Source: Candidatus Woykebacteria bacterium (GTDB lineage: Bacteria > Patescibacteriota > Microgenomatia > Woykebacterales > RBG-16-39-9b). From it: 64,000 nt of DNA. The notes below the pieces were generated by a model. It was not told where the DNA came from and did not search any database. It saw only the letters and a program-made list of their open reading frames with translations. The stretch spans positions 3,954 to 67,953 of the forward strand of contig JBBDPN010000002.1 of the NCBI GenBank assembly GCA_040876265.1. Direction: 5' to 3'. Shown one piece after another: positions 5,594-36,864 of the stretch; position 1 is the stretch's first letter; each line of letters begins with the position of its first letter. A program made the position numbers and the translations under genes.

Positions 5594-6644
<1,051 letters not shown>

Positions 6645-6747
6645 TCATTCAAGTAATTTGGGTACTCTCAAATGCTGCCCGCCCTCCACAGTGTTACGGC
6701 GGACGGGCGACCACTGTCGTGGGCTACAAGTATTATTAAGTGGTAAA

Positions 6748-7461
6748 ATGGAAATAATGTTGAGAACCCTGCCAGCAATTTTAATTATTGGTTTTCTGGC
6801 CCTTATAGCTTACAACTTAGATCTTGCCTCAAAAGCGCTAGCGTTTAGCAGCAGTTCCACCAATTTTAATCTGGAGGCAGAATTTGGGATTTTTGGCGGT
6901 AGTAAATCTTCCGCTAGTTATACTCTAACCGACACTGGCGGAGGCTTTGCAGTTGGTTTTGGCAGCAGTACAAATTACGGTACTGGTAGTGGCTTTCAAT
7001 ACAATTACCAAGTGGCCGAAATACCAGAAATAATTTTCGCTATCTCCACCACCACAGTAAATCTAGGAACATTAAGTACTGCTTCGGTTTCCACCTCTTC
7101 ACACACGATCACTGTCACGGCCAACAGCAGCGGTTACAACGCCACTGTTGTAGAAGATGGCAATCTGCGCAGCGGCGGCAACGACGTAAATGATGTTTCT
7201 GGTGGCACGGTGGATGCTGGCAGTGAGGAATACGGCCTGGCCACTAGTAAATCTGGTCAAAATATCACTCAGGATACCTCTTGCGGCCCAGATCCAGACA
7301 ATGCCAGCGCTATCACTGGTTCACCCCAAACCGTCGCCAGTGCCGCTACCTCGGTGACCGGCGATTCAACAACCCTCTGCTACGCTGCTTCAATTTCCGG
7401 CACCACCCCCACCGGTTCTTACACTCACGTTTTAACTTACATAGCAACAGGTACGTTTTAA
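6748..7461 (+). CDS. Secreted Thr/Ser-rich surface protein with WxL-like C-terminal domain (paralog of 7613..8680)
   Basis: Start taken at ATG 6748 (MEIMLRTLPAILIIGFLALIA signal peptide, AxA site). The last ~100 aa are homologous to the next gene. It ends in SISGTTPTGSYTHVLTYIATGTF, like the distal Y...LTWxL motif of WxL domains. Confidence 0.5.
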   Translation: MEIMLRTLPAILIIGFLALIAYNLDLASKALAFSSSSTNFNLEAEFGIFGGSKSSASYTLTDTGGGFAVGFGSSTNYGTGSGFQYNYQVAEIPEIIFAISTTTVNLGTLSTASVSTSSHTITVTANSSGYNATVVEDGNLRSGGNDVNDVSGGTVDAGSEEYGLATSKSGQNITQDTSCGPDPDNASAITGSPQTVASAATSVTGDSTTLCYAASISGTTPTGSYTHVLTYIATGTF

Positions 7462-7612
7462 CTTTAGTCCACTTGACCCACACAAACATCCCACCCCCTA
7501 AATCACACCCCCGAGGAGTGATGCTAGGCCTGTGAAGATGTCAACTCCCGGTTGTGGATAGTTTTGCGGTGCTTGACAGCTTGTTTTCCGTTATGTCAAA
7601 ATTAAACAGAGA

Positions 7613-8680
7613 ATGCTACTACGTCTAATCATCTTTATTTCCGTCCTGACCTTGGCCATTTCGCCTATCTATTTCCAACAGCAGGTGCAGGCTGCTCCTC
7701 ACACCACAGTATCGGACACACTGAGCCGTTTGCAAACCTCTACAGCGGCCAACCACACCATTCAGTTTGATCTCGCCTCGGCTTGGAACGCCAGTGAAAC
7801 TGTTGTTATAGATTTTGTGGACGGTGACGGCTTTGATACCAGCGGTTTTGCCAATAGTGAGGCTGAGGACTACGACATCACCTGGGAAGGAAGTGAAAAG
7901 ACGATAGTTGCCAACGGAGGCTGTGCTGCTGACTCCATTGAAATTACTACGGTAAACACCTCCACCGACACTTTCACCTTTACTCTTTGCGCTGGTTCAA
8001 CTGCTTCCGCAGCGAATGACACTATCGTTATTGAAATCGGTACCCACGCTTCTGCCGGTGGCGGTGGTAATGATCAGATCACCAACGCCACCAGTACCGG
8101 TAGCAAGACGGTTACTATCACCGGGCCCACATCTGGAGACAGCGCCACCTTTGCTGTCGCTATGATGAGTAGCGATCAGGTAACTGTTTCAGCTACAGTA
8201 GATCCAACCATCACTTCTTCACTCAGTGCTTCGACTTGTAGTTTGGGCACCCTGGGTAGCGGTGCTATTAATTTCTGCTCCTACACCAACACTGTTTCGA
8301 CCAATGCTAGCAGCGGATATGTGTCCACTATTTTAGAGGATGGCAACCTCTGTTCCCCATCGGTGGCTAGTTGTACCAACGATATAGATGATGCCGATGG
8401 TGATGTGGATCAAGGAACCGAAGAATACGGAGTCAGTAGCAACGATACCACCGGTACTCAAGACATTGTGGATAGCACTGGTTGTGACGACTCTGGTACA
8501 GCTGAAAATGCTAGCGCCATTACGGGTACCGCTCAGGTTTATGCTGACAGCGGTGATGGGGATGCTGGTCCGGTATCTAGTGCGGTAACTACGGTGTGTC
8601 ACTCTGCTTCAATAGCTGGAACTACTCCAGCCGGAAGCTATGAACACACCGTAACCCACATCACTACTGGCACTTTCTGA
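7613..8680 (+). CDS. Secreted Thr/Ser-rich surface protein with WxL-like C-terminal domain
   Basis: Has a signal peptide. The C-terminus (SIAGTTPAGSYEHTVTHITTGTF) is homologous to the 6748 protein, with a shared DGNL...EEYG...NASAITG block. Confidence 0.55.
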   Translation: MLLRLIIFISVLTLAISPIYFQQQVQAAPHTTVSDTLSRLQTSTAANHTIQFDLASAWNASETVVIDFVDGDGFDTSGFANSEAEDYDITWEGSEKTIVANGGCAADSIEITTVNTSTDTFTFTLCAGSTASAANDTIVIEIGTHASAGGGGNDQITNATSTGSKTVTITGPTSGDSATFAVAMMSSDQVTVSATVDPTITSSLSASTCSLGTLGSGAINFCSYTNTVSTNASSGYVSTILEDGNLCSPSVASCTNDIDDADGDVDQGTEEYGVSSNDTTGTQDIVDSTGCDDSGTAENASAITGTAQVYADSGDGDAGPVSSAVTTVCHSASIAGTTPAGSYEHTVTHITTGTF

Positions 8681-8760
8681 TAGTTAGATGTAAGATGTTG
8701 GATCTAGGGTGTAAGATTTTTTTATCTTAAATCCTAAATCTTAGATCTTAAATCCAAACT

Positions 8761-9789
8761 ATGACTGCTCAACTGTCCTACAAAAAAATAATTACCATCA
8801 TCGCTGCTACAGCGTTTCTCCTCTCAACCTTTTTTGCAACCGTCGCGGCCCAGGAAGACACAACCGAGAACGGTACCACTGCCGGCATCGGTATCCAAGT
8901 CTCCGCACCGATCTACAACTTTCAAATTGATCCAGGAGATAGCGGTCAAGAAATAATTAAAGTACGCAACGTGGGTGATAAAGCAGAGACCTTTTACCCG
9001 GAGGTTTTTGATTTTCGTGCCTCCGGCGAAACTGGTACACCGGCCTTTATCCTAGACTCCCAAGCCGAGACTTATACCTACTCACTGGCTGCCTGGATAA
9101 CTATTTCCAAGCAGCCCATTACTCTGAAACCCAACGAGTCCACCGCTCTAAACTTTACTATAAACGTACCCAAAAACGCTGAGCCGGGTGGCCGCTACGC
9201 CGGCGTACTTTTTGGCACAGCGCCTCCGACAGCTGGCGCCAACCAAGTAGCCATTTCCAACAAAGTCGGTTCTCTCGTTCTTGTTCGAGTCTCTGGAGAT
9301 GCCAAAGAAGAAGCTAGTGTCGAAGAATTTTCCACTCCCAAGAATTTTTATCGTGAAGGTCCGGTGGATTTTGTAGCTAGAATTAAAAATACCGGCAATG
9401 TCCACGTGATACCCAAAGGAAATATTGATATTAAAGACACCTTTGGTCGCAAGGTCGCCAGCTTACCGGTAAATGAAAAAAATGGCAACGTGCTACCAGA
9501 AAGCATCCGCCGCTTTGACAAAGACAGCAGCAATCTCATCTGGGAACCGGGCGGGTTCACTGTTGGCCGCTACACCGCTACTTTGGCTCTGACATACGGC
9601 GATCCAGCCAAAAATCTGACCGCCCAGGTCACTTTTTGGGTCGTACCTTGGGTACAGCTACTGATAATTGCTCTGGCAGTAATCATCGTAATACTACTGC
9701 TCATCTTCCTGGTAAAACGCTACAACAAATGGGTTGTGGAGCAGGCTGAAAAGAACCAAACCAAAGAAACTCCTCCTGCCGGCACCTAA
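8761..9789 (+). CDS. Cell-surface protein with signal peptide, Ig-like region and C-terminal TM anchor (DUF916/DUF3324-like, CscA-like architecture)
   Basis: N-terminal signal peptide. C-terminal hydrophobic helix LLIIALAVIIVILLLIFLV followed by KRYNKW. This architecture is typical of the TM-anchored member of WxL clusters. Confidence 0.45.
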   Translation: MTAQLSYKKIITIIAATAFLLSTFFATVAAQEDTTENGTTAGIGIQVSAPIYNFQIDPGDSGQEIIKVRNVGDKAETFYPEVFDFRASGETGTPAFILDSQAETYTYSLAAWITISKQPITLKPNESTALNFTINVPKNAEPGGRYAGVLFGTAPPTAGANQVAISNKVGSLVLVRVSGDAKEEASVEEFSTPKNFYREGPVDFVARIKNTGNVHVIPKGNIDIKDTFGRKVASLPVNEKNGNVLPESIRRFDKDSSNLIWEPGGFTVGRYTATLALTYGDPAKNLTAQVTFWVVPWVQLLIIALAVIIVILLLIFLVKRYNKWVVEQAEKNQTKETPPAGT

Positions 9790-9794
9790 AGCCG

Positions 9795-10478
9795 ATGAGC
9801 TATAAAAACTTATTATTGCTGCTGCTAATAGGCCTCCCTATTCTTTTTCCTCCCATCGTCTCAGCTCAAGATGTTGATGTTGGTGCTACGGTGGACAGAG
9901 AACCTCCCACCATCAATATCACCTCCCCTCTGGATGGCTCCACTGTTTCCGAAATTGTAAATGTAACCACGAGTGTGGGCGACGATGCTGGGATTGATAA
10001 AGTAGAGTTTTATGTTGACGGGTTTTTGAAACTGACGGACAGCTCTGCCCCTTACTCTTTTTCTTGGGATAGTGGTACGGTTGGCAACGGCAGCCACATC
10101 ATCCGGGCGCGGGTTTACGATATTGTGGGCAAAACTGCCCAAGATTCCATTACAGTTACTGTTAACAACAGTACAACACCTGCTTCTCCGCCACCTGCGA
10201 TCGAAACTCCGACTGACGATGGCGGAGAAACTCCAGAAGTCCCAGCCACACAACTACGAAGAGTCACGCTGATCCAAGATCCACTTGGTTACCTGGAGCA
10301 AGAAACCGAGAAGGGGCTACTTTTTGGCCTGGACAAAGACGCCCTACTAGGATTTATTGTCGCAATACAACTTGCCATCATCCTACTTCTCCTTTACCTA
10401 CTTAAACACCTCCGTTCTCGACGCAGTAAGGCCAGAGGATCCTCCTCATCAGAGCCAAACTCTTCACTCAACAAATAG
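9795..10478 (+). CDS. Surface protein: signal peptide, bacterial Ig-like domain, Pro-rich linker, C-terminal TM anchor with basic tail
   Basis: Starts 6 nt after the previous stop. Ig-like block INITSPLDGSTVSEIVNVT...VEFYVDG. C-terminus IVAIQLAIILLLLYLL followed by KHLRSRRSKAR. Confidence 0.5.
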   Translation: MSYKNLLLLLLIGLPILFPPIVSAQDVDVGATVDREPPTINITSPLDGSTVSEIVNVTTSVGDDAGIDKVEFYVDGFLKLTDSSAPYSFSWDSGTVGNGSHIIRARVYDIVGKTAQDSITVTVNNSTTPASPPPAIETPTDDGGETPEVPATQLRRVTLIQDPLGYLEQETEKGLLFGLDKDALLGFIVAIQLAIILLLLYLLKHLRSRRSKARGSSSSEPNSSLNK

Positions 10479-10848
10479 TGAAATCGCAACTCAACCTTTT
10501 CTCTTAGCCGCCTTACGAGCAGCACCTCAACTTACCGGCCTTGGAATAGTCAGCGTCAAAAATTGAGGTTTTCGAGCCGACTTAAAAAGGAATTTTTCAC
10601 GTCCGATCCGCCAACTGGCGGAGAGTTTGAAAAATTAGGTGAGAAAACCGATATTTTAGCTGGAGGTTCCCGGCCGGCAGTTTTGGCTCCACCTTTGCTG
10701 TCAAAGGTGGAAAAAGAAATCTTTCCACGAATTTGACAAGCAAGCAGACTACAGGTTAAAATTAAGGGTATAAATAGGTATAATTATACCCTGCTAAGGG
10801 TACAATACGCAGGGTGTAATCCTGCGGATTATACCTTAGGACCTACCC

Positions 10849-11260
10849 ATGGAGCTGCCCAACTCTAGCTTCTCTGTAAGCGAGATCATCTCGCAGTACA
10901 GAGAGTACTTAAAATCTCATAACTACTCTACCCCCACGGTCAAAAACTATTTATCTGACCTGCGTCATCTTTTTGTTTGGCTCTCAGAACATCACGGTGA
11001 ATTTCGCTTCTTTCATATAAACGAAGCAAGTCTGCGCACTTACCGTTCTTACCTAAAAGAAAAATTTCGTGCCAGACCCTCCATCGGCGCGCGACGTCTC
11101 TCTTCCCTGCGCAAATTCCTCACTTGGGCAGCTGGGAAAAACTTCATTACACCACAGCTTTACCAGTCAGTAACGCCGGTACTTGAGGCTCTCGAGCGCG
11201 AGCCAGCTACCCCAATTACTCTGGTCCCAGGCAGCGGCATTGCTGGGCAAGCCAAAAAGG
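10849..11260 (+). pseudogene. Tyrosine recombinase/integrase N-terminal SAM-like (core-binding) domain only; catalytic domain absent
   Basis: The first ~110 aa align with the XerC/XerD N-terminal domain (TVKNYLSDLRHLFVWL ... RRLSSLRKFLTWA). After the C9 tract at 11263 the frame reads low-complexity junk to a stop at 11454. Confidence 0.5.
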
Positions 11261-11377
11261 AACCCCCCCCCTGTCCCGGACAAAATACATCAAAAAATAA
11301 TACACCATATCAAACACACTCGACCAGGCTGGTACCATCGCTACCACCAGCGGGATTGGGCCAGCACTTTGCACACC

Positions 11378-14119
11378 GTGATAATGATCCTCTTTGTGAT
11401 CGCCGTTGGATCTTTGATCCTCTACACCGAAGTGATCAAACCGCAGCTGGATAGTACTCGAGATCAATTTGCCGAAGATCTGGGCGACGTGCTAGCCGCC
11501 GCTTCCCCACCGCGGATACTTTCTTTTCAAGGTAGGCTGACAGACAGCTCTGGAGATCCGGTCACCAGTGCTACCGACGTGGTTTTCAAAATCTATGACG
11601 CGCGAACTGGCGGTACTCTGCTTTGGACATCAAAAACTTGGTCCGTAACTCCGGATTCCAATGGCATTTTCTCGGTTTGTCTTGGCGGCCAAGACACTAC
11701 TGATGACTGTCTGCTCAATGGTGTCGCTGACACCGCTATCCCCTCTACTCTATTTTCCGAAAACGCAGCTTTGTATCTTGGTGTCACCGCCGGAAGCGAC
11801 AGTGAAATGACGCCTCGCCAAAGAATCGCTTCTGTTTCTTACGCCTTAAATTCAGATACTTTGGACGGCTTCCACGGCTCCCAGTCCCCTGGTGCGAACC
11901 AAGTACCGGTGCTTGACGGCAGTGGGAACCTGGCCTTCGCCGGAGCCGCGACCATAAGTACTGGTAGTTCTGGCGCCTTAACCTTGGACTCTGCTTCTGG
12001 AACAGTTGGTCTCGGGTCTGGTGATTTGTTTTTAACAACCGGTCAGACTTCTACTTTTACTTCCAGTACCTCACTTATCACCGCGGACAATGTCTTTGTG
12101 ATTGGTGCCTCAACTGGTACTTTTGTTCAGATGGACGCTCAATCACTTCCCATCCACACGGGTGATATAACAGGTGCGGGCAAATTAATCGGCGTGCGAT
12201 CTTTGTTTGATGATATTGCTGGCAACACCAGCAGAAGGACCCTTGCATCAGTACGTAATTTTGAATCTAGTCTTACCACTATCAGCTATGCCCAGGCGGG
12301 AATCACCATAACTAACTATGCGGGTCTTTGGATAATTGACCCGGAAATGGATGGAGGTGCAAACGACACTATAATCACCAATCCTTACGGTATCTATATT
12401 GAAGATTTCAGCACTAGCGAGGGTGGAACATTTACCAACACGCCCCGCGCAATTTATCAAGCTGGTACAGATGATTACAATATCCTCGCTGGCCAGACCC
12501 GAATCGGTGGCACCAGCGACCCAGCCTCTGGCATCGAGTTGGATGTGACTGGTGACGCAAACGTATCCGGCAGTTATTACCAAGGTGGCACCCAAGGTAT
12601 TACTGCCAATTGCGGTGCCAGCGAATTCCTCCAAGACCCAACTGTCTCCGGCGGTATTGTGACTGCAGGAACCTGTGCCTCAGCTGGAGGTAGTGGCGAG
12701 AGTTTCTTTTCGTTTCTCACCAGCACCAAGACCGGCGCTGGTTATCAGTTTTCGGCGACCGGCCAGGTAAATTCAAACTCGACCGATTTTACGCCAAATA
12801 ACACCGATGGCTCGGTCCAGGCAAATTTTGCCGGCTATGTCTTTGTCACCGCCACCGTCAATTTCGAGTCATATGATGACTCCACCACAGTCACCGCAGT
12901 TGAGGTAAATGGATCCGTGGTAGCTCAAGACAGACTAAGTTACAGCAACGACGAAACAGACATAATTAATTACATCAGCCAGACTGTCACCTGGGCTGGG
13001 GCAGTGGCCGATGGCGATGATATCAGCGTGGATATTCCGACCTTGTCTGGTGCGACCGTCAACAATGATGGAACGGCGGGCGAACAAGCCGGTACACTAG
13101 TAGTCCAGAAGATAAGAACCGGGGCCGATGTAGCCGAGATGTATCCAACGGCTGATCCTACACTTAATGCAGGAGATGTGGTTAGTATAGACCCCTCTCT
13201 TCGCGGCGGAGTAAAAAAATCGGATAAACAATACGATTCACAAGTACTTGGGGTTGTCTCAACTCTTCCCAGTCTAGTGATCGGATCTCCGATTGGGACA
13301 GGTAGTGGGCCTCATCACACGGCAGTTGCTTTGACCGGTCGAGTCCCAGTGAAAGTTTCGGGTGAGAATGGGCCGATTGAGCCCGGAGACTTGCTCACTT
13401 CTTCGTCCACACCAGGTGTGGGAATGAAAGCAACCCGTGCAGGGTACGTAATCGGTCGGGCTCTCACCAGCCTCAGCTGTCCGGGCGTTAACACCTCGGA
13501 GGTGGATAGAACGGTCTCGCCAGATGGTGGCAACCCCTGCCAAGGCACGGTCGTAGTTTTCGTAGGTACCCACTACGCCAACCCCGCTCAACTGGATGAG
13601 TCTGGAGATCTATCCTCAACCTTCGATTGGGATCTGGAAAATGAAGAGAACTTGAAAGCGCTGGCGAAATTGCGAGTGGACAAAGATAACAATATAGTTA
13701 CTTCTATATCAGATGGTAGCAGGTTTATCTGGGAAAACTCTCTCGGTGAGGCAGTCGCTTGGGTAAACAGCGCTGGCGAAGCTTTTTTCCAGAAAGTAAC
13801 CGCCACTGTGGCTGATTTTGGCAAGCTGGTCTTCGGTGAGGCCGTGGTGAAAAAAGAAGCCAAAACGGCCGGGGAAGCCTCCTTCCAGACCAACGAAACC
13901 GAAGTACTGATCAGATCAGACAAAGTGACAGAAGATTCCTTGATAAATCTAACCCCAACTACCAAAACTGGTGGCGTCTCACTCTATGTCAAAGAGAAAA
14001 AGCCTGGTGAAGGCTTCGTAGTAGCTTTAGAGAGGAACTCCGGCGATCTCCCCGACCAAGCTACCGCTTCGGCAACGCAAGCAATCAAATTTACCTGGTT
14101 CATCCTCAACCAAGAATAA
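11378..14119 (+). CDS. Large (~910 aa) membrane-anchored, Gly/Thr/Ser-rich beta-helix-like surface protein with conserved C-terminal domain ending in FTWFIL
   Basis: Long ORF open from 11183. The likely start is GTG 11378 or ATG 11384, just before TM helix MILFVIAVGSLILY. The C-terminal 250 aa are paralogous to the 1..910 gene. Confidence 0.6.
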   Translation: MIMILFVIAVGSLILYTEVIKPQLDSTRDQFAEDLGDVLAAASPPRILSFQGRLTDSSGDPVTSATDVVFKIYDARTGGTLLWTSKTWSVTPDSNGIFSVCLGGQDTTDDCLLNGVADTAIPSTLFSENAALYLGVTAGSDSEMTPRQRIASVSYALNSDTLDGFHGSQSPGANQVPVLDGSGNLAFAGAATISTGSSGALTLDSASGTVGLGSGDLFLTTGQTSTFTSSTSLITADNVFVIGASTGTFVQMDAQSLPIHTGDITGAGKLIGVRSLFDDIAGNTSRRTLASVRNFESSLTTISYAQAGITITNYAGLWIIDPEMDGGANDTIITNPYGIYIEDFSTSEGGTFTNTPRAIYQAGTDDYNILAGQTRIGGTSDPASGIELDVTGDANVSGSYYQGGTQGITANCGASEFLQDPTVSGGIVTAGTCASAGGSGESFFSFLTSTKTGAGYQFSATGQVNSNSTDFTPNNTDGSVQANFAGYVFVTATVNFESYDDSTTVTAVEVNGSVVAQDRLSYSNDETDIINYISQTVTWAGAVADGDDISVDIPTLSGATVNNDGTAGEQAGTLVVQKIRTGADVAEMYPTADPTLNAGDVVSIDPSLRGGVKKSDKQYDSQVLGVVSTLPSLVIGSPIGTGSGPHHTAVALTGRVPVKVSGENGPIEPGDLLTSSSTPGVGMKATRAGYVIGRALTSLSCPGVNTSEVDRTVSPDGGNPCQGTVVVFVGTHYANPAQLDESGDLSSTFDWDLENEENLKALAKLRVDKDNNIVTSISDGSRFIWENSLGEAVAWVNSAGEAFFQKVTATVADFGKLVFGEAVVKKEAKTAGEASFQTNETEVLIRSDKVTEDSLINLTPTTKTGGVSLYVKEKKPGEGFVVALERNSGDLPDQATASATQAIKFTWFILNQE

Positions 14120-14150: not shown

Positions 14151-14801
14151 TTAATCAAGGGTTTGATGTTTGGCAAGCTCCAAGGTTCTACCATAATCTG
14201 CTTGGTCCAAGACGAAAGATCTGTATTTATTTTTAGAAGCTCCTGGAAATAAATCCAGGGTCAATTCGGTATTCACTACACCCAAAGAATTTTTTCCTAT
14301 ATACTCCAGATACGACGACCACTCGTAGGTTGACAAATCATTAGTAAGTCCCCCTACAAGTGGGTTCAAATGAATATATCTCGAAACGTGAAGCAGTAGC
14401 TCGTCAGATTCGATTTTCACTGCTTTAAACGGCCCTTGGAACAGGTGCCCGACTCTCTTGTGTTTTGTGTTGAAATATTTTGTATAACTATTTGACAACC
14501 TGCCAATAAAAGTAGATATTCCATTTTCGGTGTTTTGCCGAAGGAGCATGTGAAAATGGTTTGGCATCAAGCAGTAAACGTAGATTTCAACCAGATTTTG
14601 AGCCGGTGTTTCGTGATCTTTTATCATTTTATGGGATTTAAAAGAAAATCTAGTTGGAACATTGGTTTTTAGATAATAAATCAAAGTATTATAAAAACGA
14701 CGATAGTCTCTTCTATCGTAAAAAATATTTCTTTTTTCTACACCCCTATTGAAAACGTGATAAATACCCCCATCTCCCAATGCTTCTTTACGATATGGCA
14801 T
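14151..14801 (-). CDS. REP-associated tyrosine transposase (RAYT) copy 2
   Basis: IYHVFNRG, YCLMPNHFHMLL (HUH), RVGHLFQGPF and YIHLNP blocks. Paralog of 1292..1981 at about 50% identity by eye. Confidence 0.75.
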   Translation of the reverse strand: MPYRKEALGDGGIYHVFNRGVEKRNIFYDRRDYRRFYNTLIYYLKTNVPTRFSFKSHKMIKDHETPAQNLVEIYVYCLMPNHFHMLLRQNTENGISTFIGRLSNSYTKYFNTKHKRVGHLFQGPFKAVKIESDELLLHVSRYIHLNPLVGGLTNDLSTYEWSSYLEYIGKNSLGVVNTELTLDLFPGASKNKYRSFVLDQADYGRTLELAKHQTLD

Positions 14802-17874: not shown

Positions 17875-19047
17875 TTAGGCCTTTCTTCGAAACTTCTTTA
17901 GAGCCAAACCAGCTGGCACGCTACCAAAAAGTAGCAGCATAGCTAGTCCCGGACCAGTATCCGGCAGTACGCTCACTGGAACTTCTTTTTCCTCAAGTAC
18001 TTCTGGCTTGATCACTTTAACTTTGAAGGTAACAAATCTTTCAAATTCAAAGCAACCTTTGATAGTTTTTAGGGAAACTCCACTAGAAAACAGTTTGCTT
18101 TGACCGTTTACATCAGCTACCAGCTGCCCTTCGCTTTTATCAGCGTGGACAAAAGTTCTAGTAGTACCAGGGATGTATTCAAGTCTAGCAAAGTATGGAG
18201 TCGTCACTGTCGCAGTATCAGAGATCGTGTCAAAATTGTCTCCCGAAACAAGAGCTTTGTTGACAAATTTTTCTGCTTCTGCAGTAGGAAGAACGTCTTT
18301 CACTACTACGTCTTTGGCTTCGCTACCAACCACGCTGTTGTGCACCCAAATTCTGTATTCCAGTATGTCACCATCACTAGTAGTTACACTATCATTTACG
18401 AAACCGCTGTTGGTGGTGATGTTTCTCACTTCTTTCTTCATCTCCATATTTGGATCTGGCTTTGGAGTCTGAACGCTCTCATTTACAATATCAGCGTAAA
18501 ATACGTACCAATGTTTGTACTGCACATCGCCACCACGGATCTTGTTAATCTTCAGACCTTGTGGTGTGATAAGCGGAGAGAGTCCGTTTACATCTGGAAT
18601 TGCGGTGCCAACGCTATCGTTGTAACCGTAAACCCGGGTGCTACCGATACGATAGATAAGTTTCTTACCAGAAGGCAATTTAATATTTGCATCAGAAAAC
18701 GAAAGTGGTGTGTGGCTAGTCTTTAGTAAAGCCCTATTTTTTACGTTGCCTGTTTGATCAAAAGGAAACTCATCTCTCAAAAGACCATCTGTGTAGGTGG
18801 TATTTGTCGGATTGTAAACGTAAATACGAAATATTACAGGCTTACCAGTATCAGTAATATTAAGATCCTGAGTAAAGGACCCGCTGCCCTCTTGTTTAGC
18901 TTGTTTTATGAAATCAATCTGGTTGGTGGCGTCAGCGTTGCTGAGAAAAGGAACGGTGACAGAGCCGAGCAAAAACGCTAGACCAAAAGTAAATATTGAA
19001 AGTGATTTTAGAACTGTTCTGTTTTTCATTACTGCGTATAATAACAT
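17875..19047 (-). CDS. LPXTG-type cell-wall-anchored surface protein
   Basis: N-terminal signal peptide. C-terminal LPDTG, then a hydrophobic segment, then KKFRRKA: a sortase sorting signal. Confidence 0.6.
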   Translation of the reverse strand: MLLYAVMKNRTVLKSLSIFTFGLAFLLGSVTVPFLSNADATNQIDFIKQAKQEGSGSFTQDLNITDTGKPVIFRIYVYNPTNTTYTDGLLRDEFPFDQTGNVKNRALLKTSHTPLSFSDANIKLPSGKKLIYRIGSTRVYGYNDSVGTAIPDVNGLSPLITPQGLKINKIRGGDVQYKHWYVFYADIVNESVQTPKPDPNMEMKKEVRNITTNSGFVNDSVTTSDGDILEYRIWVHNSVVGSEAKDVVVKDVLPTAEAEKFVNKALVSGDNFDTISDTATVTTPYFARLEYIPGTTRTFVHADKSEGQLVADVNGQSKLFSSGVSLKTIKGCFEFERFVTFKVKVIKPEVLEEKEVPVSVLPDTGPGLAMLLLFGSVPAGLALKKFRRKA

Positions 19048-19199: not shown

Positions 19200-21239
19200 C
19201 TAAGCCGGGCCGCCGTAGCCGTCATCAGGGTCGGTGTCCGGAGGAGCCTGCGGTATCGGTGTCTCCGTCGGCAGGGGGTCCGTACCCGGGATGTCCTCAC
19301 CAGGCGGTACTGACCCTTCGGCGAAGTCCAGCACCTCGTCGTAGCAGATGGTTTCCGATCCGTCCAGTATGTACACCCCCAGATCGTTCTCTTCGTTGAG
19401 AGGTATCATGAACTGGACGGCCTCACCACTACCGATGAAGTCGCCGTTTAGCCACCATTCGATCTGGTGATCGAAGTTGGGTAGCCGGTCCCACTGGATA
19501 GACGCCTGCATCCGGGCGTGGGTCTGCGTGTTGTCGACCCGATGCGGACCGAGGATCGTCACTTCGCACTTTTTCGGCGTCGGTGTTGGAGACGGTTTTG
19601 GTGTCGCCGTTGGGCTGGGCTTGGGAGTCGGCGTCGGCTCTGGACCAGGCGGCTTCACCGTCCGGTTCTTCCAGACCCCGGCGTCCTTGAACTTCTCGCC
19701 ACGTTTGATGGTGAGAGTCTTCTCGCCGCTGGCCGGGTCGATCGGCTGCCACTTATCGCTAGGGGCTATCTCCCGGATCTTCACCGTCACCTGCTCGGCG
19801 TCGGTGTTGGGACCCGTAAAGATGTCCACGTCCTCGAACCGGAATTCGCCGGTTTCAGGATCGGTCTTGACCTTCAGGGTAGGCAGCCCGGGCACGGAAA
19901 GCTCGAAGGTGAAGACCTCGTTGGGAACGCGGTGCTTCTCACCGTGGACCCAGACCTTCTTGCCGACGATAGTTACCGGCGGCGGAGGCGGCGTCACCTT
20001 CCGGTTACCAAACTCCACGGGGGCTACGTCGCCGTCCTTCACCTCCACGGTCTGGGTGGTCGCCGTTGTCGCCTCCCAACCGTCGGGGATGTTGATCTCC
20101 TTCACCGTGTAGGTGCCCGGCGGCAGCGCGTCCGACACGAACAGGCCGTTGACGTCAGTGGTTACGGTCTTATCGAAGTCGGGGCCCTTGATGTGGAAGG
20201 TGAAGGTGACGTCTGCGGAAGGCGGGCCTTCACCCTTCTCCGGCTTACCGTCGCCGTCCTTGTCCTCCCATTTGATGATCTTGAGCCGGCCTTCCTTGGG
20301 GGTGGGGATGGTCAGGTTCACGCAATCGTCAAGCAGCGTGAACTTGTTGTCCTTACCCTTGACGCTGATCACCTTGGCGTCTGTTGGCGAGCCTGAGTAG
20401 TCGACGGTTCGGGCCTCGACGCTGTTGCAATCGTCGGAGCGCAGCAGCACGTTGGTCTTGACGATCTCTGTGAAGTGAGGGATCTCCTCGATGTTGGTGA
20501 TGTCCGAGGCCTGCACATCGATGCCCTGGCAGCGCAGCCCGGAGGCCGCTTGCTCTTTGAGAGCATCGGTTTCCGAGGCGCTGGGTGCCGACGCGGTTGC
20601 CCCGGCAAACCCCTCATCGATCACGTAGGAGGCTTCACTCGCCGGTAAGGGTGCTGGCTGATCAAGCGTAGCCGGGTAGATGTCTACCTGCTGCCGACCT
20701 TCCGCTAGGAGGTTTGGTGTGTCCTGATCCCAGTACCCAAACGCGAAGGTCTGGAGCTCCACCACCTCGGCGTCAGCCACCTCGATTCGGTAGTAACCGG
20801 AGTCGTCGGTGGTCAGCACTTCGAGCTGACTGGAGCCGATTGGCGCGTCGCTACTCCTGGCCCGAACCGCCTGCAGCGCTGAGAGGTCTGTGACCGCCGC
20901 AACGCTGGGCTGGAAGTCCGGGTGGCGGTATCGAAGCACCTGCACGTGGGCGTTCGGTAACGCCTCGCCTGAGTGGCGATCACGCACGTAGCCCTCGAGT
21001 GAGGTAGTGCCGTCCGCAGATGGCCCCAGGTCAGTGACCTGGTAACCTGGCTCCTGGGAGTACTCCTGACTCACCATGGTGCCGTTGCGGAGATGGTCTC
21101 CACCTCCGGACAAGAGGACGAACGCGAGCATCACCGCCGCCCCTACGGCTACTCCTGCCGGGGCGACCGAGTACACGCGCCTCTTCTGGAAAACGATCAC
21201 AGCGAGGAACGCTGCGATCACCAATATGAAAACCCACAT
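19200..21239 (-). CDS. N-terminally TM-anchored protein with Cna-B/prealbumin-like repeats and a Pro/Thr-rich PTPKPSPT linker; GC-rich (about 60%) single-gene island
   Basis: PGTYTVKEINIPDGWE matches the Cna B GxYxLxE..P.GY motif. Low-complexity PEPTPTPKPSPTATPKPSPTPTP linker. GC content rises sharply exactly at the ORF borders. Confidence 0.5.
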   Translation of the reverse strand: MWVFILVIAAFLAVIVFQKRRVYSVAPAGVAVGAAVMLAFVLLSGGGDHLRNGTMVSQEYSQEPGYQVTDLGPSADGTTSLEGYVRDRHSGEALPNAHVQVLRYRHPDFQPSVAAVTDLSALQAVRARSSDAPIGSSQLEVLTTDDSGYYRIEVADAEVVELQTFAFGYWDQDTPNLLAEGRQQVDIYPATLDQPAPLPASEASYVIDEGFAGATASAPSASETDALKEQAASGLRCQGIDVQASDITNIEEIPHFTEIVKTNVLLRSDDCNSVEARTVDYSGSPTDAKVISVKGKDNKFTLLDDCVNLTIPTPKEGRLKIIKWEDKDGDGKPEKGEGPPSADVTFTFHIKGPDFDKTVTTDVNGLFVSDALPPGTYTVKEINIPDGWEATTATTQTVEVKDGDVAPVEFGNRKVTPPPPPVTIVGKKVWVHGEKHRVPNEVFTFELSVPGLPTLKVKTDPETGEFRFEDVDIFTGPNTDAEQVTVKIREIAPSDKWQPIDPASGEKTLTIKRGEKFKDAGVWKNRTVKPPGPEPTPTPKPSPTATPKPSPTPTPKKCEVTILGPHRVDNTQTHARMQASIQWDRLPNFDHQIEWWLNGDFIGSGEAVQFMIPLNEENDLGVYILDGSETICYDEVLDFAEGSVPPGEDIPGTDPLPTETPIPQAPPDTDPDDGYGGPA

Positions 21240-29165: not shown

Positions 29166-29422
29166 AACCAGGCGAGCAATAGATTTCAAATGAACAACCC
29201 AGCGTTGCTGTTGGGCTAATCATAAAAATGAGACGTGACCTTAGCCCACGACCTGGCTGACTTCAGGCAGGAGTGGTCGCAGACCATGTTACATATAAAT
29301 AGGCCGTGAATCTTAAATAGTGGAATGCTATCTGACAACGATCAAGATAGCAATGCAACTATCGCAGGTCATGGCCAACAAATGAAAAGCCCCGATTTTA
29401 ATCGGGGCTTAACATATTAATA

Positions 29423-29532
29423 CGGCCATGACCTACTTTCCCAGGCCCTGCGGACCAAGTATCATCGGCGCTGCCAGTTTTTACGACCGAGTTCGGGATG
29501 GGATCGGGTAGAGCCCTGGCGCTCCAACGGCC
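29423..29532 (-). rRNA. rrf: 5S rRNA
   Basis: The minus strand reads ...CCCGAACUCGGUCGUAAAAACUGGCAGCGCCGAUGAUACUUGG...GGGAAAGUAGGUCAUGGCCG, matching 5S conserved blocks. Ends are approximate. Confidence 0.7.
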
Positions 29533-29777
29533 TTGAGTTAGTCGTCAGTTGTAAGTTGTAAGCAACTTAACAACTAACCCAAAACCGTTTTTCTTACAAC
29601 TTAGAAATTAAATCTTATAACTAAGTCCTGCACCCTGAAAACTGGATAGAAGTATTTTGGATCTGATGTGATCTTAGAGAACGGAGCACTATTGAAACAA
29701 AGATTTCAATAGTAGCGTAGTTCTCGCAGATCGCAACTGATCCTAAGGATCTTTTACGATCTGTTAGTACGGCTTAG

Positions 29778-32660
<2,883 letters not shown>

Positions 32661-32856
32661 CAGATAACAGTTACCAAGACGTTAACTGCTATCTGACCTT
32701 CTATCCAGTTTTTAAGGTACCATCTTAGATCAAAGATATAAGATGTTAGATGTAAGATATCTTAAAGTCTGACATCTTAAATCTGACATCCATACCTTGG
32801 CTTGCCATGAGCAAGACTTCGACGTTGAGCTCAGTCGAACCGCGCAGAGCGTCGAA

Positions 32857-32933
32857 TGGTGGACCTGGCCGGATTCGAACCGGCGACCTCTGCCTTGCAA
32901 AGGCAGCGCTCTAACCAACTGAGCCACAGGCCC
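32857..32933 (-). tRNA. tRNA-Ala (anticodon UGC) in the 16S-23S spacer
   Basis: Reverse complement GGGCCTGTGGCTCAGTTGGTTAGAGCGCTGCCTTTGCAAGGCAGAGGTCGCCGGTTCGAATCCGGCCAGGTCCACCA. G3:U70 present. Anticodon loop is UUUGCAA. Confidence 0.85.
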
Positions 32934-33241
32934 GCGCAAGCACAAGGCGCTATTCTAGCAATATTAAATTTTGGTGTCTAGAGGGAACTTTAGGTTGGAG
33001 GTGAATTACCTACGCTTCTACGAAGTGAGTAAGAAACAAATATAAGTTTTGCGTAAATCACTTGCCTAAAATCCCTCCTGTGAATGATCCTTCGACGCTG
33101 CTCAGGATCACCCCGAGCTTGCCGAAGGGTGAGAATAATTCACTCATCAACCGCAATATAGCACCAATTTGGGCTTCCGTCAAGGTAGAGACAGACCAGT
33201 TAGCACTCTTGAAAAGTGCTTTGCTAATTTTTAGCCCACGC

Positions 33242-33300
33242 TAGTGGTCGCAGCACGCAAGAGTATCTAAATAATGAGTTTCTAACGAAATTATTTAGTT
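33242..33300 (-). promoter_or_regulatory. Hairpin (CTAAATAAT..ATTATTTAG) followed by box TAYTCTTGCG..GCGACCACTA, spacer copy; boxB/boxA-like antitermination candidate
   Basis: The same two-part element recurs at 37357-37435 upstream of 16S. It lies upstream of tRNA-Ala/23S in the sense orientation. Confidence 0.4.
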
Positions 33301-33380
33301 ACGGAGCGGGTTTAGCAACAGCGCAGCACGCGGAGTAGCTGGCTTTGAGCGCTAGCGAAACGGCATAAGCTACGAGCGGG

Positions 33381-33734
33381 CTATCTGTGGCTTTCGTTGA
33401 GGATCTTCCAGTTCCAGTTTCTTTTTTTGTTGGAGCCGATTTTCTTGATGATGGCTTTTTCGAGGTCAATTTTCAATGATCCAGAAAGATGTAGTAATCG
33501 TTGGAGTACGTCGCCAAGCTCTTCTTCAAAACCACCTTTGCCTTTAATTTTTTTGTGGCGATAAGCCTCATAAGCTTCGGAGATTTCGCTGTGAAGCAAG
33601 GCTATCTTTTCCGGCACGCTTATATCTTTCCGACTTGTGCCAAAACCTTTTTCCCGGGCTTGTTCCATAACGAGTTCCGTTAATTGTTTCAGGGTAAGAT
33701 TTTTCACGAAGGTATTATATACCCGTAAATCCAA
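33381..33734 (-). CDS. MazG-like nucleoside triphosphate pyrophosphohydrolase domain protein, encoded inside the rRNA spacer
   Basis: KIALLHSEISEAYEAYR ... EELGDVLQRLLHL matches the MazG/NTP-PPase helix pair with the EExxE/ExxD metal ligands. Same strand as the rRNAs. Confidence 0.55.
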   Translation of the reverse strand: MDLRVYNTFVKNLTLKQLTELVMEQAREKGFGTSRKDISVPEKIALLHSEISEAYEAYRHKKIKGKGGFEEELGDVLQRLLHLSGSLKIDLEKAIIKKIGSNKKRNWNWKILNESHR

Positions 33735-34009
33735 TCGCGAACTTGGTCTGGATCATAAAAACTTCCATTAAGAATAAAATAATGTGTCTTGGGAAATTCA
33801 AGAATAGTGTCATTAATTAATTCAAGCTCGTTTTCTATCGAACCAAAAAAAGATTCGCAGGGTCTTACCCTGTGAGTAAAATGATACCGCCCAAGAGAGT
33901 GTATTTTGATAGTCATATGATTCTCCATGTGAGAAATTTTGGTACCCATAACTATATTATACAAATCTTATCTGACCCATTGAGTTCATCAAAAAAAAAG
34001 GGGGGGGGA

Positions 34010-34384
34010 TTAAAACAAGGTTTCGGGTTTGACCCTGTGTTTAATCAAGCATTCATTGTAAAAAGCGTTTATTTCATCTGGTGTTTTCAACCCACCTTTT
34101 AACTGGATGTAGCTATAATAATCTGTAATGCCACCAACGTTAGGTATCAATTCCGGCTCGTAAATAGCTGCATTCAAGGGTCTGTTGTCAGCAATTTTCG
34201 CTTTTTTTCTAAATTCGCTTATACAGATTTGCCTTACCTCCACTGGTCTCCATTCAAACCAATAGAAACTACCAATCAAAAATAATGTTATTGAGGCTAA
34301 AGATACTGATAAAAAGATGGTCTTAGATTTGTTCATAAATATTTTTGAAAATATGGTGGGCGCGGATGGGATAAACCGCTCCAT
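34010..34384 (-). CDS. Small membrane-anchored hypothetical protein inside the rRNA spacer
   Basis: 124-aa ORF with one N-terminal TM helix (TIFLSVSLASITLFLIGSFYWF). On the same strand as the rRNAs. No recognisable family. Confidence 0.3.
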   Translation of the reverse strand: MERFIPSAPTIFSKIFMNKSKTIFLSVSLASITLFLIGSFYWFEWRPVEVRQICISEFRKKAKIADNRPLNAAIYEPELIPNVGGITDYYSYIQLKGGLKTPDEINAFYNECLIKHRVKPETLF

Positions 34385-34501
34385 AATTCGAAACTTTCAG
34401 TTTCTTAAGTATTCCCGCGTTTTGCGACCACGCTAAGCGTGGGCTACGAACCTGGGACCCCTACATTAGACGCAACTAAAGCTGCTATCTTTTGCGATTC
34501 A

Positions 34502-34577
34502 TGGTGCGCGCGCATGGATTCGAACCATGGACCCCTACATTATCAGTGTAGTGCTCTAACCACTGAGCTACGCGCGC
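34502..34577 (-). tRNA. tRNA-Ile (anticodon GAU) in the 16S-23S spacer
   Basis: Reverse complement GCGCGCGTAGCTCAGTGGTTAGAGCACTACACTGATAATGTAGGGGTCCATGGTTCGAATCCATGCGCGCGCACCA. Anticodon loop is CUGAUAA. Confidence 0.85.
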
Positions 34578-34827
34578 AAAAGTGCACCGCTTCGCGTTTC
34601 GCTTTTTCTTACGCAAAAGTCATAGTTGTGCTCTAACCACTGAGCTATCCGCCCAGATTTTCAAAATACAGATCAACGCTCGTACCACTGACCTGCCTGC
34701 CGGCAGGCAGGGCTACGCGCCCAAATCGAGTTCAAATTCTAGCATAAACGCAAAAACCCCGCAACGTACGGGGTTTTCCAATTAATGTAATCCTTCGATC
34801 ATCTCAGGATTTTGCTTCGCTCAACAA

Positions 34828-34852
34828 CTCAACATGTAGCAAGAACGAACGT
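34828..34852 (-). promoter_or_regulatory. 3' half of the 16S processing stem (pairs with 36640-36662)
   Basis: CAACATGTAGCAAGAAC here is the exact reverse complement of GTTCTTGCTACATGTTG at 36644-36660. This is the classic long-range stem bracketing 16S for RNase III. Confidence 0.6.
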
Positions 34853-34996
34853 CCTTCCACCAAAGTGGTGGGTGACTTAGTCTTGCCGTGAGAGCAAGAC
34901 CATAGAGCCATAAATATCGTAGCTCTGATTGCTCCTTTTGTCTCCCATACTTGGCAACCCTCCGATTTAATCGGAGTTTACCTAAATATAAAAAGA

Positions 34997-36490
<1,494 letters not shown>

Positions 36491-36864
36491 AAGATCGCTC
36501 CGTACTTCCCCACTCTTTGTAAAGGGCGGGTTCGGTACTCTCGCGTTCTGCGCTCTGCAAAGCAGAGCTTAGAAAAGTTGATCAGTTGTTCAGAATTGAC
36601 GTTCTTTTCCTACTTACATTGTCCTTGCGGCAACTGTAAGAAGGGTTCTTGCTACATGTTGAATTGTCCTCCGATTTGATCGGAGAGCAATTTGTTAAAT
36701 TGTCAAAGTGCTTGATTGGTATGTTCTCCAACGAAAAAGAGCTGGCACAAACCGAGCTCTTGCAAAGGGTCCAAATGTGCACTCAAAAATAAGTTTACAT
36801 ACCAATTCTCATTTCCGAACTCATTTTAGTTTAAAAATTATACTCTGTCAAGGGACAGCGGGTA

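Follow-up and report, generated by a model that had tools for sequence, protein, structure and literature searches.

The 64,000-nucleotide stretch of DNA analyzed here (the window) comes from Candidatus (Ca.) Woykebacteria, a member of the Microgenomatia group of the candidate phyla radiation (CPR), and carries four consecutive plus-strand genes, designated G1 to G4, which probably constitute a minimal pam-type pilus operon. G1 spans positions 6748-7461 and encodes 237 aa from its ATG codon, the mechanically defined open reading frame (ORF) opening at a TTG at 6658. It is followed by G2 (7613-8680, 355 aa), G3 (8761-9789, 342 aa), and G4 (9795-10478, 227 aa), with intergenic gaps of 151, 80, and 5 bp, respectively. 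An earlier note on this DNA had described these four genes as all carrying signal peptides; the ORF list of the window confirmed the four ORFs at the same coordinates, and a hydrophobic, signal-peptide-like segment was found at the N-terminus of every product. Signal peptides were called by eye and from the N-terminal helices of the AlphaFold2 (AF2) models (2-20 in G2 and 7-29 in G3). The NCBI records for the proteins identical to G2 and G3, from a Ca. Woykebacteria metagenome-assembled genome, read "hypothetical protein". We regard the cluster as a divergent, compact member of the already described Pam pilus family of CPR bacteria.

The Pam family was described in a preprint (bioRxiv 10.64898/2026.03.03.709456), which reported cryo-electron microscopy (cryo-EM) of two filaments from Ca. 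Mycosynbacter amalyticus, a parasitic CPR bacterium, and introduced the name pam for the operon. In that work, the Pam pilin has two domains and a linker that is its best-conserved segment, PamA and PamB contain paired cysteines, and PamT is a single-domain tip subunit with no linker. PamC and PamD are PapD/FimC-like chaperones with a C-terminal transmembrane (TM) helix, while PamR, the terminator, is anchored by a TM segment, has an additional strand at its N-terminus, and shows an RbmA-like tandem-FnIII architecture. The system has no usher, and genes for ATP synthase and tail-fibre-like proteins lie nearby (10.64898/2026.03.03.709456).

G1 and G2 have a Ser+Thr content of 29% and share a C-terminal domain (43% identity, BLASTP E 3e-24) that terminates in ...GSY(T/E)H.(L/V)T(Y/H)I(A/T)TGTF. 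The earlier note had recognized this paralogous domain and its ending, with a length of about 100 aa in place of the 145 aa found here. In G1, a signal peptide (aa 1-32) and a Gly/Ser-rich N-terminal segment with no donor strand precede the putative acceptor domain, a truncated immunoglobulin (Ig) domain at aa 93-237 (nt 7024-7458), an arrangement like that of the PamT tip. In G2, the signal peptide (aa 1-27) is followed by an N-terminal beta-sandwich (aa 28-185, nt 7694-8167), the linker DQVTVSATVDPT as the proposed donor strand (aa 188-199, nt 8174-8209), and the C-terminal acceptor domain (aa 200-355, nt 8210-8677). The eight cysteines of G2 form four apparent, co-conserved pairs. In the hmmalign alignment, G1 began just past the linker position.

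No Pfam match was found for G1 or G2. With the models of NCBIfam release 20, G1 matched the whole of NF058579 (CPR_pilus_PamT; 7-241 of 241, E 1.8e-13, 50.5 bits) and also NF058581 (CPR_Pam_pilin_C; E 4.6e-11, 43 bits), and G2 matched NF058581 over aa 206-355 (E 9.6e-6, 25.7 bits). The curated cut-offs of these two models are 240 and 55 bits, respectively. A hidden Markov model (HMM) of the G2 family matched pilins at three loci of other genomes, L007 and L024 from Saccharimonadia and L049 from Microgenomatus, with E values of 8e-22 to 9e-77. These pilins exceed the NF058581 cut-off (158, 168, 162, and 67 bits against 55) and are encoded directly upstream of G3-family chaperones. Consequently, the window genes are to be read as divergent members of the family and not as chance matches.

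The AF2 model of G2 (pLDDT 89.3) consisted of two all-beta domains. Between them, the segment aa 186-199 contained no DSSP strand and had a lowered pLDDT of 76, as would be expected of a donor strand modeled as a monomer, with no partner to enter. The Foldseek matches of this model in the PDB were mostly generic Ig-like adhesin domains and included the PapG pilin domain (probability 0.99, TMt 0.55).

Across CPR classes, the DQVTVSATVDPT linker is the best-conserved stretch of the pilin family. A strict motif derived for it occurred 36 times in 2761 ORFs of the related loci, with 30 of the 36 occurrences in pilin linkers, and was absent from shuffled sequences. A position-specific scoring matrix (PSSM) was built from 115 linkers of other genomes, excluding the window sequences, and was used to scan 25,803 positions of the window ORFs. 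The G2 linker ranked first (38.5 bits), followed by the mature N-terminus of G4, QDVDVGATVDRE, as the top non-pilin match (8.8 bits), and the disordered G3 loop NQVAISNKVGSL ranked eighth (4.2 bits). No linker-like segment was detected in G1, where the top PSSM score was -0.5. At the best 80 related loci, 29% of the proteins encoded just downstream of the chaperone scored at least 6 bits within aa 10-90, compared with 1% of the other ORFs (Mann-Whitney U test, p 5e-18).

G3 is the candidate chaperone. Its signal peptide (aa 1-30) is followed in the AF2 model (pLDDT 87.3) by a pair of Ig-like domains at about aa 45-152 and 169-294. The long helix that comes next (aa 297-334) contains the C-terminal TM helix (aa 297-318, nt 9649-9714), which stands ahead of a basic tail. 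The top Foldseek matches of the model in the PDB were the solved Enterococcus faecium WxLIP structures 9i1y and 9i25 (E 3e-12), and the next were the chaperones CfaA, CsuC, Caf1M, DraB, FimC, and PapD of chaperone-usher systems (E 4e-10 to 2e-7). G3 matched PF06030 (DUF916, WxLIP_PGBD) with E 2.1e-5 and 25.0 bits, just below the gathering score of 27.3, and 29 of 35 G3-family members matched the same model, the best with E 1e-9. When the G3-family profile was searched against PDB sequences, EfmWxLIP1 was the only match (E 1.5e-5), and the alignment spanned both domains. Some CPR relatives of G3 have already been named "DUF916 domain-containing protein" by NCBI, and the chaperones of bona fide Saccharimonadia Pam loci gave weaker PF06030 matches (5/9). 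These sequence matches and the predicted fold support homology of G3 with WxLIP, with strict Pfam membership being borderline. Judged by the published descriptions of PamC and PamD, G3 is a PamC/D-like chaperone, and the Pam chaperones and WxLIP appear to form one family. The Pam preprint (10.64898/2026.03.03.709456) mentions neither WxL nor DUF916, the WxLIP paper does not mention chaperones, and our literature searches returned no paper linking Pam-type chaperones with WxLIP.

The loop between the two Ig-like domains of G3 holds the proposed complementing strand, NQVAISNKVGSL (aa 161-172, nt 9241-9276). In the AF2 monomer, aa 153-168 were disordered, and aa 161-164 fell below a pLDDT of 50. 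The alignment to the family profile placed NQVAISNKVGSL with the GAQIKNRIAYNL region of EfmWxLIP1. For WxLIP, a disordered hairpin has been predicted with AF2 to insert into the WxL domain and to fill a gap in its sandwich (PMC10599100). The G3 loop may be the equivalent of this hairpin, for which the paper gives no residue numbers.

G4 has a signal peptide (aa 1-24), after which the mature protein begins with QDVDVGATVD. Its first residues, QDVDVGATVDRE (aa 25-36, nt 9867-9902), are the pilin-linker mimic found with the PSSM. They are followed by a Big_7 Ig domain (aa 38-105, nt 9906-10109, E 2.2e-19), a Pro-rich stalk (aa 128-150), and a TM segment (aa 183-203, nt 10341-10403) with a basic tail. 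No match to the Pam C-terminal domain, and thus no acceptor domain, was found in G4. Its orthologues occupy the same position at the loci L001 to L003, and that of L002 is likewise a Big_7 protein. By analogy, G4 is likely the terminator and anchor, a functional counterpart of PamR. The Ig-like cores, C-terminal TM segments, and basic tails that the earlier note had ascribed to G3 and G4 were thus recovered in both proteins, and its comparison of the pair with the DUF916/DUF3324 (CscA) members held for G3, by PF06030 and the WxLIP structures, and failed for G4, a single-Big_7 protein; PF11797 (DUF3324) was matched neither by G3 nor by its family.

The promoter and terminator scan of positions 6400-11300 gave counts not above those of shuffled sequences and was uninformative on operon structure. 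A promoter-like site lies at 7573-7602 on the plus strand, in the 151-bp gap directly 5' of G2 (TTGACA, an 18-nt spacer, and TG-CAAAAT). It could allow more expression of G2 as the major subunit; such sites are no commoner in this region than in shuffled sequence.

Related loci across CPR bacteria

The scan for related loci used one genome per species, and the gene-order counts were taken from the best 80 loci. At least 458 species-level genomes encode a relative of G3. The best 80 loci were essentially all from CPR bacteria, including Woykebacteria, Saccharimonadia, Dojkabacteria, Microgenomatus, Berkelbacteria, Gracilibacteria, Paceibacterota, and others. In 55 of these 80, a gene with the Pam C-terminal domain was located at most 200 bp upstream of the chaperone gene, and in 41 at least two such genes were present within 6 kb. 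Two chaperone paralogues, as with PamC and PamD, were found at 30 of the 80 loci. The exact order G1-G2-G3-G4 was repeated in L001, L002, and L003. Given this recurring gene order and the frequent pilin-chaperone adjacency, the arrangement of the cluster is not due to chance. In L002, a second Woykebacteria genome, the orthologous cluster adjoins the genes for the F1 ATP synthase subunits alpha, gamma, and beta; none of these lies beside the cluster in the window.

Some of the records bear titles that do not point to CPR bacteria. The contigs of L001, L004, L005, L006, L032, L055-L057, L068, L069, and L074 are titled "Candidatus Nanoarchaeia archaeon", "uncultured Gammaproteobacteria", "Magnetospirillaceae", "Bdellovibrionales", or similar, and are probably mis-binned or mis-classified CPR contigs. 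A plasmid recorded under "Klebsiella pneumoniae" (CP069367.1) carries a gene whose product shares 73.5% identity with E. faecium WxLIP1, which suggests that this record is mislabelled.

Assembly model and alternative readings

On the homologies, domain architectures, conserved strand motif, and conserved gene order described above, we infer the following course of assembly and function. All four products would be exported by Sec, and G3, held in the membrane by its C-terminal helix, would act as a chaperone of the PapD/WxLIP type, with its loop around aa 161-172 completing the incomplete Ig fold of the G1 and G2 C-terminal domains. G1 has an acceptor domain and no donor strand, so it can only accept and would be confined to the distal tip. 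G2 can both donate and accept, which makes it the candidate shaft subunit; it would polymerize head-to-tail by donor-strand exchange between the linker DQVTVSATVDPT and the acceptor domain. G4 can only donate and is membrane-anchored, which assigns it the role of terminator and anchor; it would cap the proximal end and tie the fibre to the membrane via its Pro-rich stalk and TM helix. The filament would most likely mediate contact with host cells, as proposed for Ca. Mycosynbacter amalyticus.

Several points weigh against this reading. The NCBIfam scores of G1 (50.5 bits to NF058579 and 43 bits to NF058581) and G2 (25.7 bits to NF058581) are below the curated cut-offs, and under NCBI's own rule the two would therefore not be called Pam proteins; a close G2 orthologue in L002 had no NCBIfam match at all. 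Searches of PDB sequences with G1, G2, and the G2-family profile gave nothing meaningful, PamA and PamB apparently being outside the PDB set searched. The score of the G3 loop (4.2 bits, rank 8) is modest. G4 has one Big_7 domain and not the tandem-FnIII, RbmA-like architecture of PamR, and its anchor role is based on analogy and a 12-residue motif. No filament has been observed in any Woykebacteria.

The earlier note had compared the cluster with a WxL/Csc-type surface complex. On such a reading, G1 and G2 would act as variants of WxL proteins, bound non-covalently to peptidoglycan and stabilized by a WxLIP-like G3, with no filament being formed. The homology of G3 with WxLIP in sequence and fold fits this proposal, and so does the layout. 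In a WxL cluster, a small single-domain protein is joined by a larger one that shares its C-terminal domain, by a TM protein with two Ig domains, and by a small protein that is anchored (PMC10599100). The small and large proteins with a common C-terminal domain and the two-Ig TM protein recur here as well as in the Firmicutes loci L081-L085, which were retrieved for comparison. The note had likened the C-terminal domain of G1 and G2 to a WxL domain with W replaced by Y/H. A low-stringency hhalign alignment of the Pam C-terminal domain with WxL was colinear in three blocks, which included the GY/GW and (Y/H)I/WxL positions; its score of 19.3 was not reached by any of 60 block-shuffled decoys (mean 12.1, sd 2.3). 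Against this, Y/H and not W stands at both motif positions, PF13731 had no match in G1 or G2 (E<=1) or in 33 relatives (E<=10), the comparison of a 228-sequence Pam C-terminal-domain alignment with a 127-sequence WxL alignment gave P 0.025 and 2% probability in hhalign, and reciprocal HMM-versus-sequence scores were no better than those of reversed decoys. WxL membership of G1 and G2 was thus rejected on the Pfam, hhalign (local and global), and reciprocal HMM results. The conserved G2 linker and its echo at the G4 N-terminus would also have no role in a static platform and are expected for donor-strand exchange, and the close relatives of the G1 and G2 pilins are recognized by models built from filament subunits proven by cryo-EM. 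We therefore consider a WxL/Csc-type complex unlikely. Of the earlier proposal, the WxLIP relative G3, with its WxLIP-like fold and near-threshold PF06030 score, and the matching layout persist, while G1, G2, G4, and the giant and LPXTG proteins drop out. Distant homology between the Pam C-terminal domain and WxL is weakly kept open by the colinear alignment and the shuffle control.

Two further explanations were weighed. The four proteins could serve a non-filamentous display of adhesins, with G3 and G4 as independently anchored Ig-like proteins and G1 and G2 as secreted or S-layer-associated glycoproteins, co-expressed and unassembled. All four are generic beta-sandwich surface proteins, G1 and G2 are rich in Ser and Thr, the fold matches of G2 are mostly to Ig-like adhesin domains, and the promoter and terminator scans were at chance level, so co-transcription is unproven. 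This explanation is nevertheless very unlikely in view of the pilin-chaperone adjacency at 55 of 80 loci across CPR classes, the fold of G3, which is specifically that of chaperone-usher chaperones and WxLIP, and the strand motif common to the pilin linker, the anchor N-terminus, and the chaperone loop. A sortase-assembled pilus of the Gram-positive type would have G1 and G2 covalently polymerized, with the LPXTG protein encoded at 17875-19047 belonging to the set. G1 and G2 end at the stop codon with ...ATGTF and ...TTGTF, respectively, and have no LPXTG motif, hydrophobic stretch, or basic tail. In addition, the LPXTG-type gene is located on the other strand, apart from the cluster, and the window ORFs that were scanned yielded no sortase. 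Since the sorting signals are absent from G1 and G2, we treat this explanation as effectively refuted.

Neighbouring genes

A tail-fibre-like protein is encoded downstream of the cluster on the plus strand (11183-14119). Its mechanical ORF comprises 978 aa, and the true start is probably near a TM segment at nt 11366-11425. The product matched the NCBIfam model Bdello_MAT_N (mosaic adhesive trimer fibre) with E 1.9e-6. A paralogue that ends at position 910 on the plus strand runs off the left edge of the window and has a K1-lyase_C-like C-terminus (26.9 bits; gathering score, 27). The two end in FTWFIL and FDWWII, respectively, both within AIKF(D/T)W(W/F)I(I/L), and the earlier note had read these endings as canonical-looking WxL motifs. 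The endings are present; their reading as WxL motifs was rejected, as the proteins are tail-fibre-like with no WxL match. Similar tail-fibre-like genes were present at 8 of the 80 related loci. We regard 11183-14119 as associated with the cluster and not as a core part, and the two flanking paralogues may be adhesins working together with the pilus.

In the first part of this fibre ORF (11183-11425), a His-rich stretch, HHIKHTRPGWYHRYHQRDW, stands ahead of the TM segment. It is comparable to the opening of the protein encoded after the chaperone at the Saccharimonadia loci L007, L014, L024, L025, L030, L031, L033, L040, and L080. That protein begins with the His-rich motif H-x-H-T-S-Y, which abuts an N-terminal TM segment and is followed by a linker-like strand and a Pro-rich stretch.

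The upstream extension of the fibre ORF is overlapped in another frame by a 201-aa ORF (10849-11454, plus strand) in which the N-terminal SAM-like domain is all that is present of a Xer-type tyrosine recombinase. IS200/REP-type transposase genes are located on the minus strand at 14151-14801 and 1292-2050. With this recombinase fragment and the transposase genes, the region looks like a rearranged spot; L002 has its ATP synthase genes at this position.

The LPXTG protein (17875-19047, minus strand, 390 aa) has a DUF11-type repeat and ends with LPDTG, a hydrophobic stretch, and KKFRRKA. The earlier note had counted it as completing the usual WxL set. The protein is real, and it is not a CscD-like member of the cluster. 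Its gene is situated outside the cluster on the opposite strand, at a distance of 7.4 kb, with genes for Rho, an M23 peptidase, and a transposase in between. Next to it, a 679-aa protein with SpaA/SdrD_B prealbumin-like domains is encoded at 19200-21239 (minus strand), and a 767-aa VWA protein is encoded at 39136-41439 (minus strand). The three appear to make up a surface-protein set of their own, which may be sortase-dependent.

A complete rRNA operon was found on the minus strand at 29420-36492, with the 16S gene at 34996-36492, the 23S gene at 29743-32655, and the 5S gene at 29420-29535. Its 16S-23S spacer is unusually long; it holds two tRNA genes (34505-34577 and 32860-32933) separated by about 1.5 kb, with small ORFs (33381-34384) in the interval.

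Comparison with known systems

The WxL/Csc clusters of Lactobacillales and Bacillales have the same gene content as the window cluster and a homologous chaperone-like component. The operation also appears to be the same, as a predicted WxLIP strand fills the gap in the WxL sandwich in the way proposed for Pam chaperones. In contrast, the window cluster belongs to a different phylum, its anchor uses a TM helix and not LPXTG plus sortase, its G3 has no DUF3324 match in Pfam, and G1 and G2 have no detectable WxL domain. WxL proteins have been described as a peptidoglycan-bound platform and not as a filament.

Among the Firmicutes loci retrieved for comparison, the WxL clusters on plasmids (L081, 2179-4792; L082, 3934-4798; L085, 3925-4789) encode LPXTG and WxL proteins with common N-terminal strand motifs. 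In E. innesii, AYDSNGVTSF of the LPXTG protein compares with AEY(T/N)SNG(A/Q)ITF of three WxL proteins, and the LPXTG-protein N-termini SDVTVRLL (B. thuringiensis) and SKVTVRII (Enterococcus LX10) compare with ASVNVKAG and ATVKVNSG of WxL proteins. These sequence similarities hint at a possible use of strand exchange in WxL clusters as well, and they are to be taken as a lead and not as a result. In L081, a class A sortase gene is located directly 3' of the WxLIP gene.

A broader relationship is possible, though we hold it with more doubt than confidence: Pam pili of CPR bacteria and WxL/Csc clusters of Firmicutes might both be branches of a single, ancient donor-strand assembly system of monoderm envelopes, one that uses a chaperone and no usher, with the Y/H-for-W domain as a remote WxL homologue. 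PamC/D and G3 would then correspond to WxLIP, PamT and G1 to the small WxL proteins, PamA/B and G2 to the large WxL proteins, and PamR and G4 to the small LPXTG protein. If this were true, strand exchange would assemble, and perhaps polymerize, the WxL proteins of Enterococcus, Listeria, and Lactobacillus, the LPXTG protein would cap them, and this would replace the picture of WxL proteins simply sticking to peptidoglycan. As members of one family, the two systems would inform each other: the cryo-EM-based Pam mechanism would provide a working hypothesis for the poorly understood virulence and adhesion clusters of the WxL type, and the WxLIP structures 9i1y and 9i25 would become templates for CPR pilus chaperones. 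The grouping of a Pam-type chaperone with the WxLIP (DUF916/DUF3324) of Enterococcus, Listeria, Lactobacillus, and Bacillus may outweigh the cluster itself in importance.

CPR bacteria are monoderm. The window cluster shares with the chaperone-usher pili (Pap, Fim, Csu, CFA/I, and Caf1) the two-Ig chaperone fold and a pilin-like acceptor domain, and its proposed logic is the same, with the tip first, growth at the base, and a terminator subunit at the end. It differs from them in having no outer membrane and no usher; Pfam and NCBIfam scans of neighbouring genes of the cluster gave no usher-like protein. Its chaperone is membrane-tethered and not periplasmic, its proposed donor strand is an inter-domain linker and not an N-terminal extension, and each subunit has an extra N-terminal domain. 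TasA and the TasA-like and archaeal thread-type filaments are made without a dedicated chaperone gene, whereas here a conserved chaperone gene is located directly 3' of the pilin gene.

Pam-type filaments are candidates for the host-cell contact on which CPR bacteria depend. The window cluster lies in a lineage, Woykebacteria, in which the curated models now miss it. Its list of parts is short, with an acceptor-only tip, a donor-and-acceptor shaft, a donor-only anchor, and a chaperone, and with so few parts the assembly logic is easy to test. Compared with the Pam pilus of M. amalyticus, it has one shaft pilin and not three (PamA/B/E), one chaperone and not two, and an anchor with a single Big_7 Ig domain in place of a tandem-FnIII, RbmA-like protein; its pilins are divergent and below the NCBIfam cut-offs, and it comes from Woykebacteria and not from Saccharimonadia. 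Common to both are the restriction to CPR bacteria, paired cysteines, the absence of an usher, and TM-bearing PapD-like chaperones, and, by the roles proposed here for G1 and G4, a single-domain tip with no linker and a terminator that is anchored by a TM segment and has a strand at its N-terminus. Both also have genes for tail-fibre-like proteins and ATP synthase as neighbours, the latter in L002 and not in the window.

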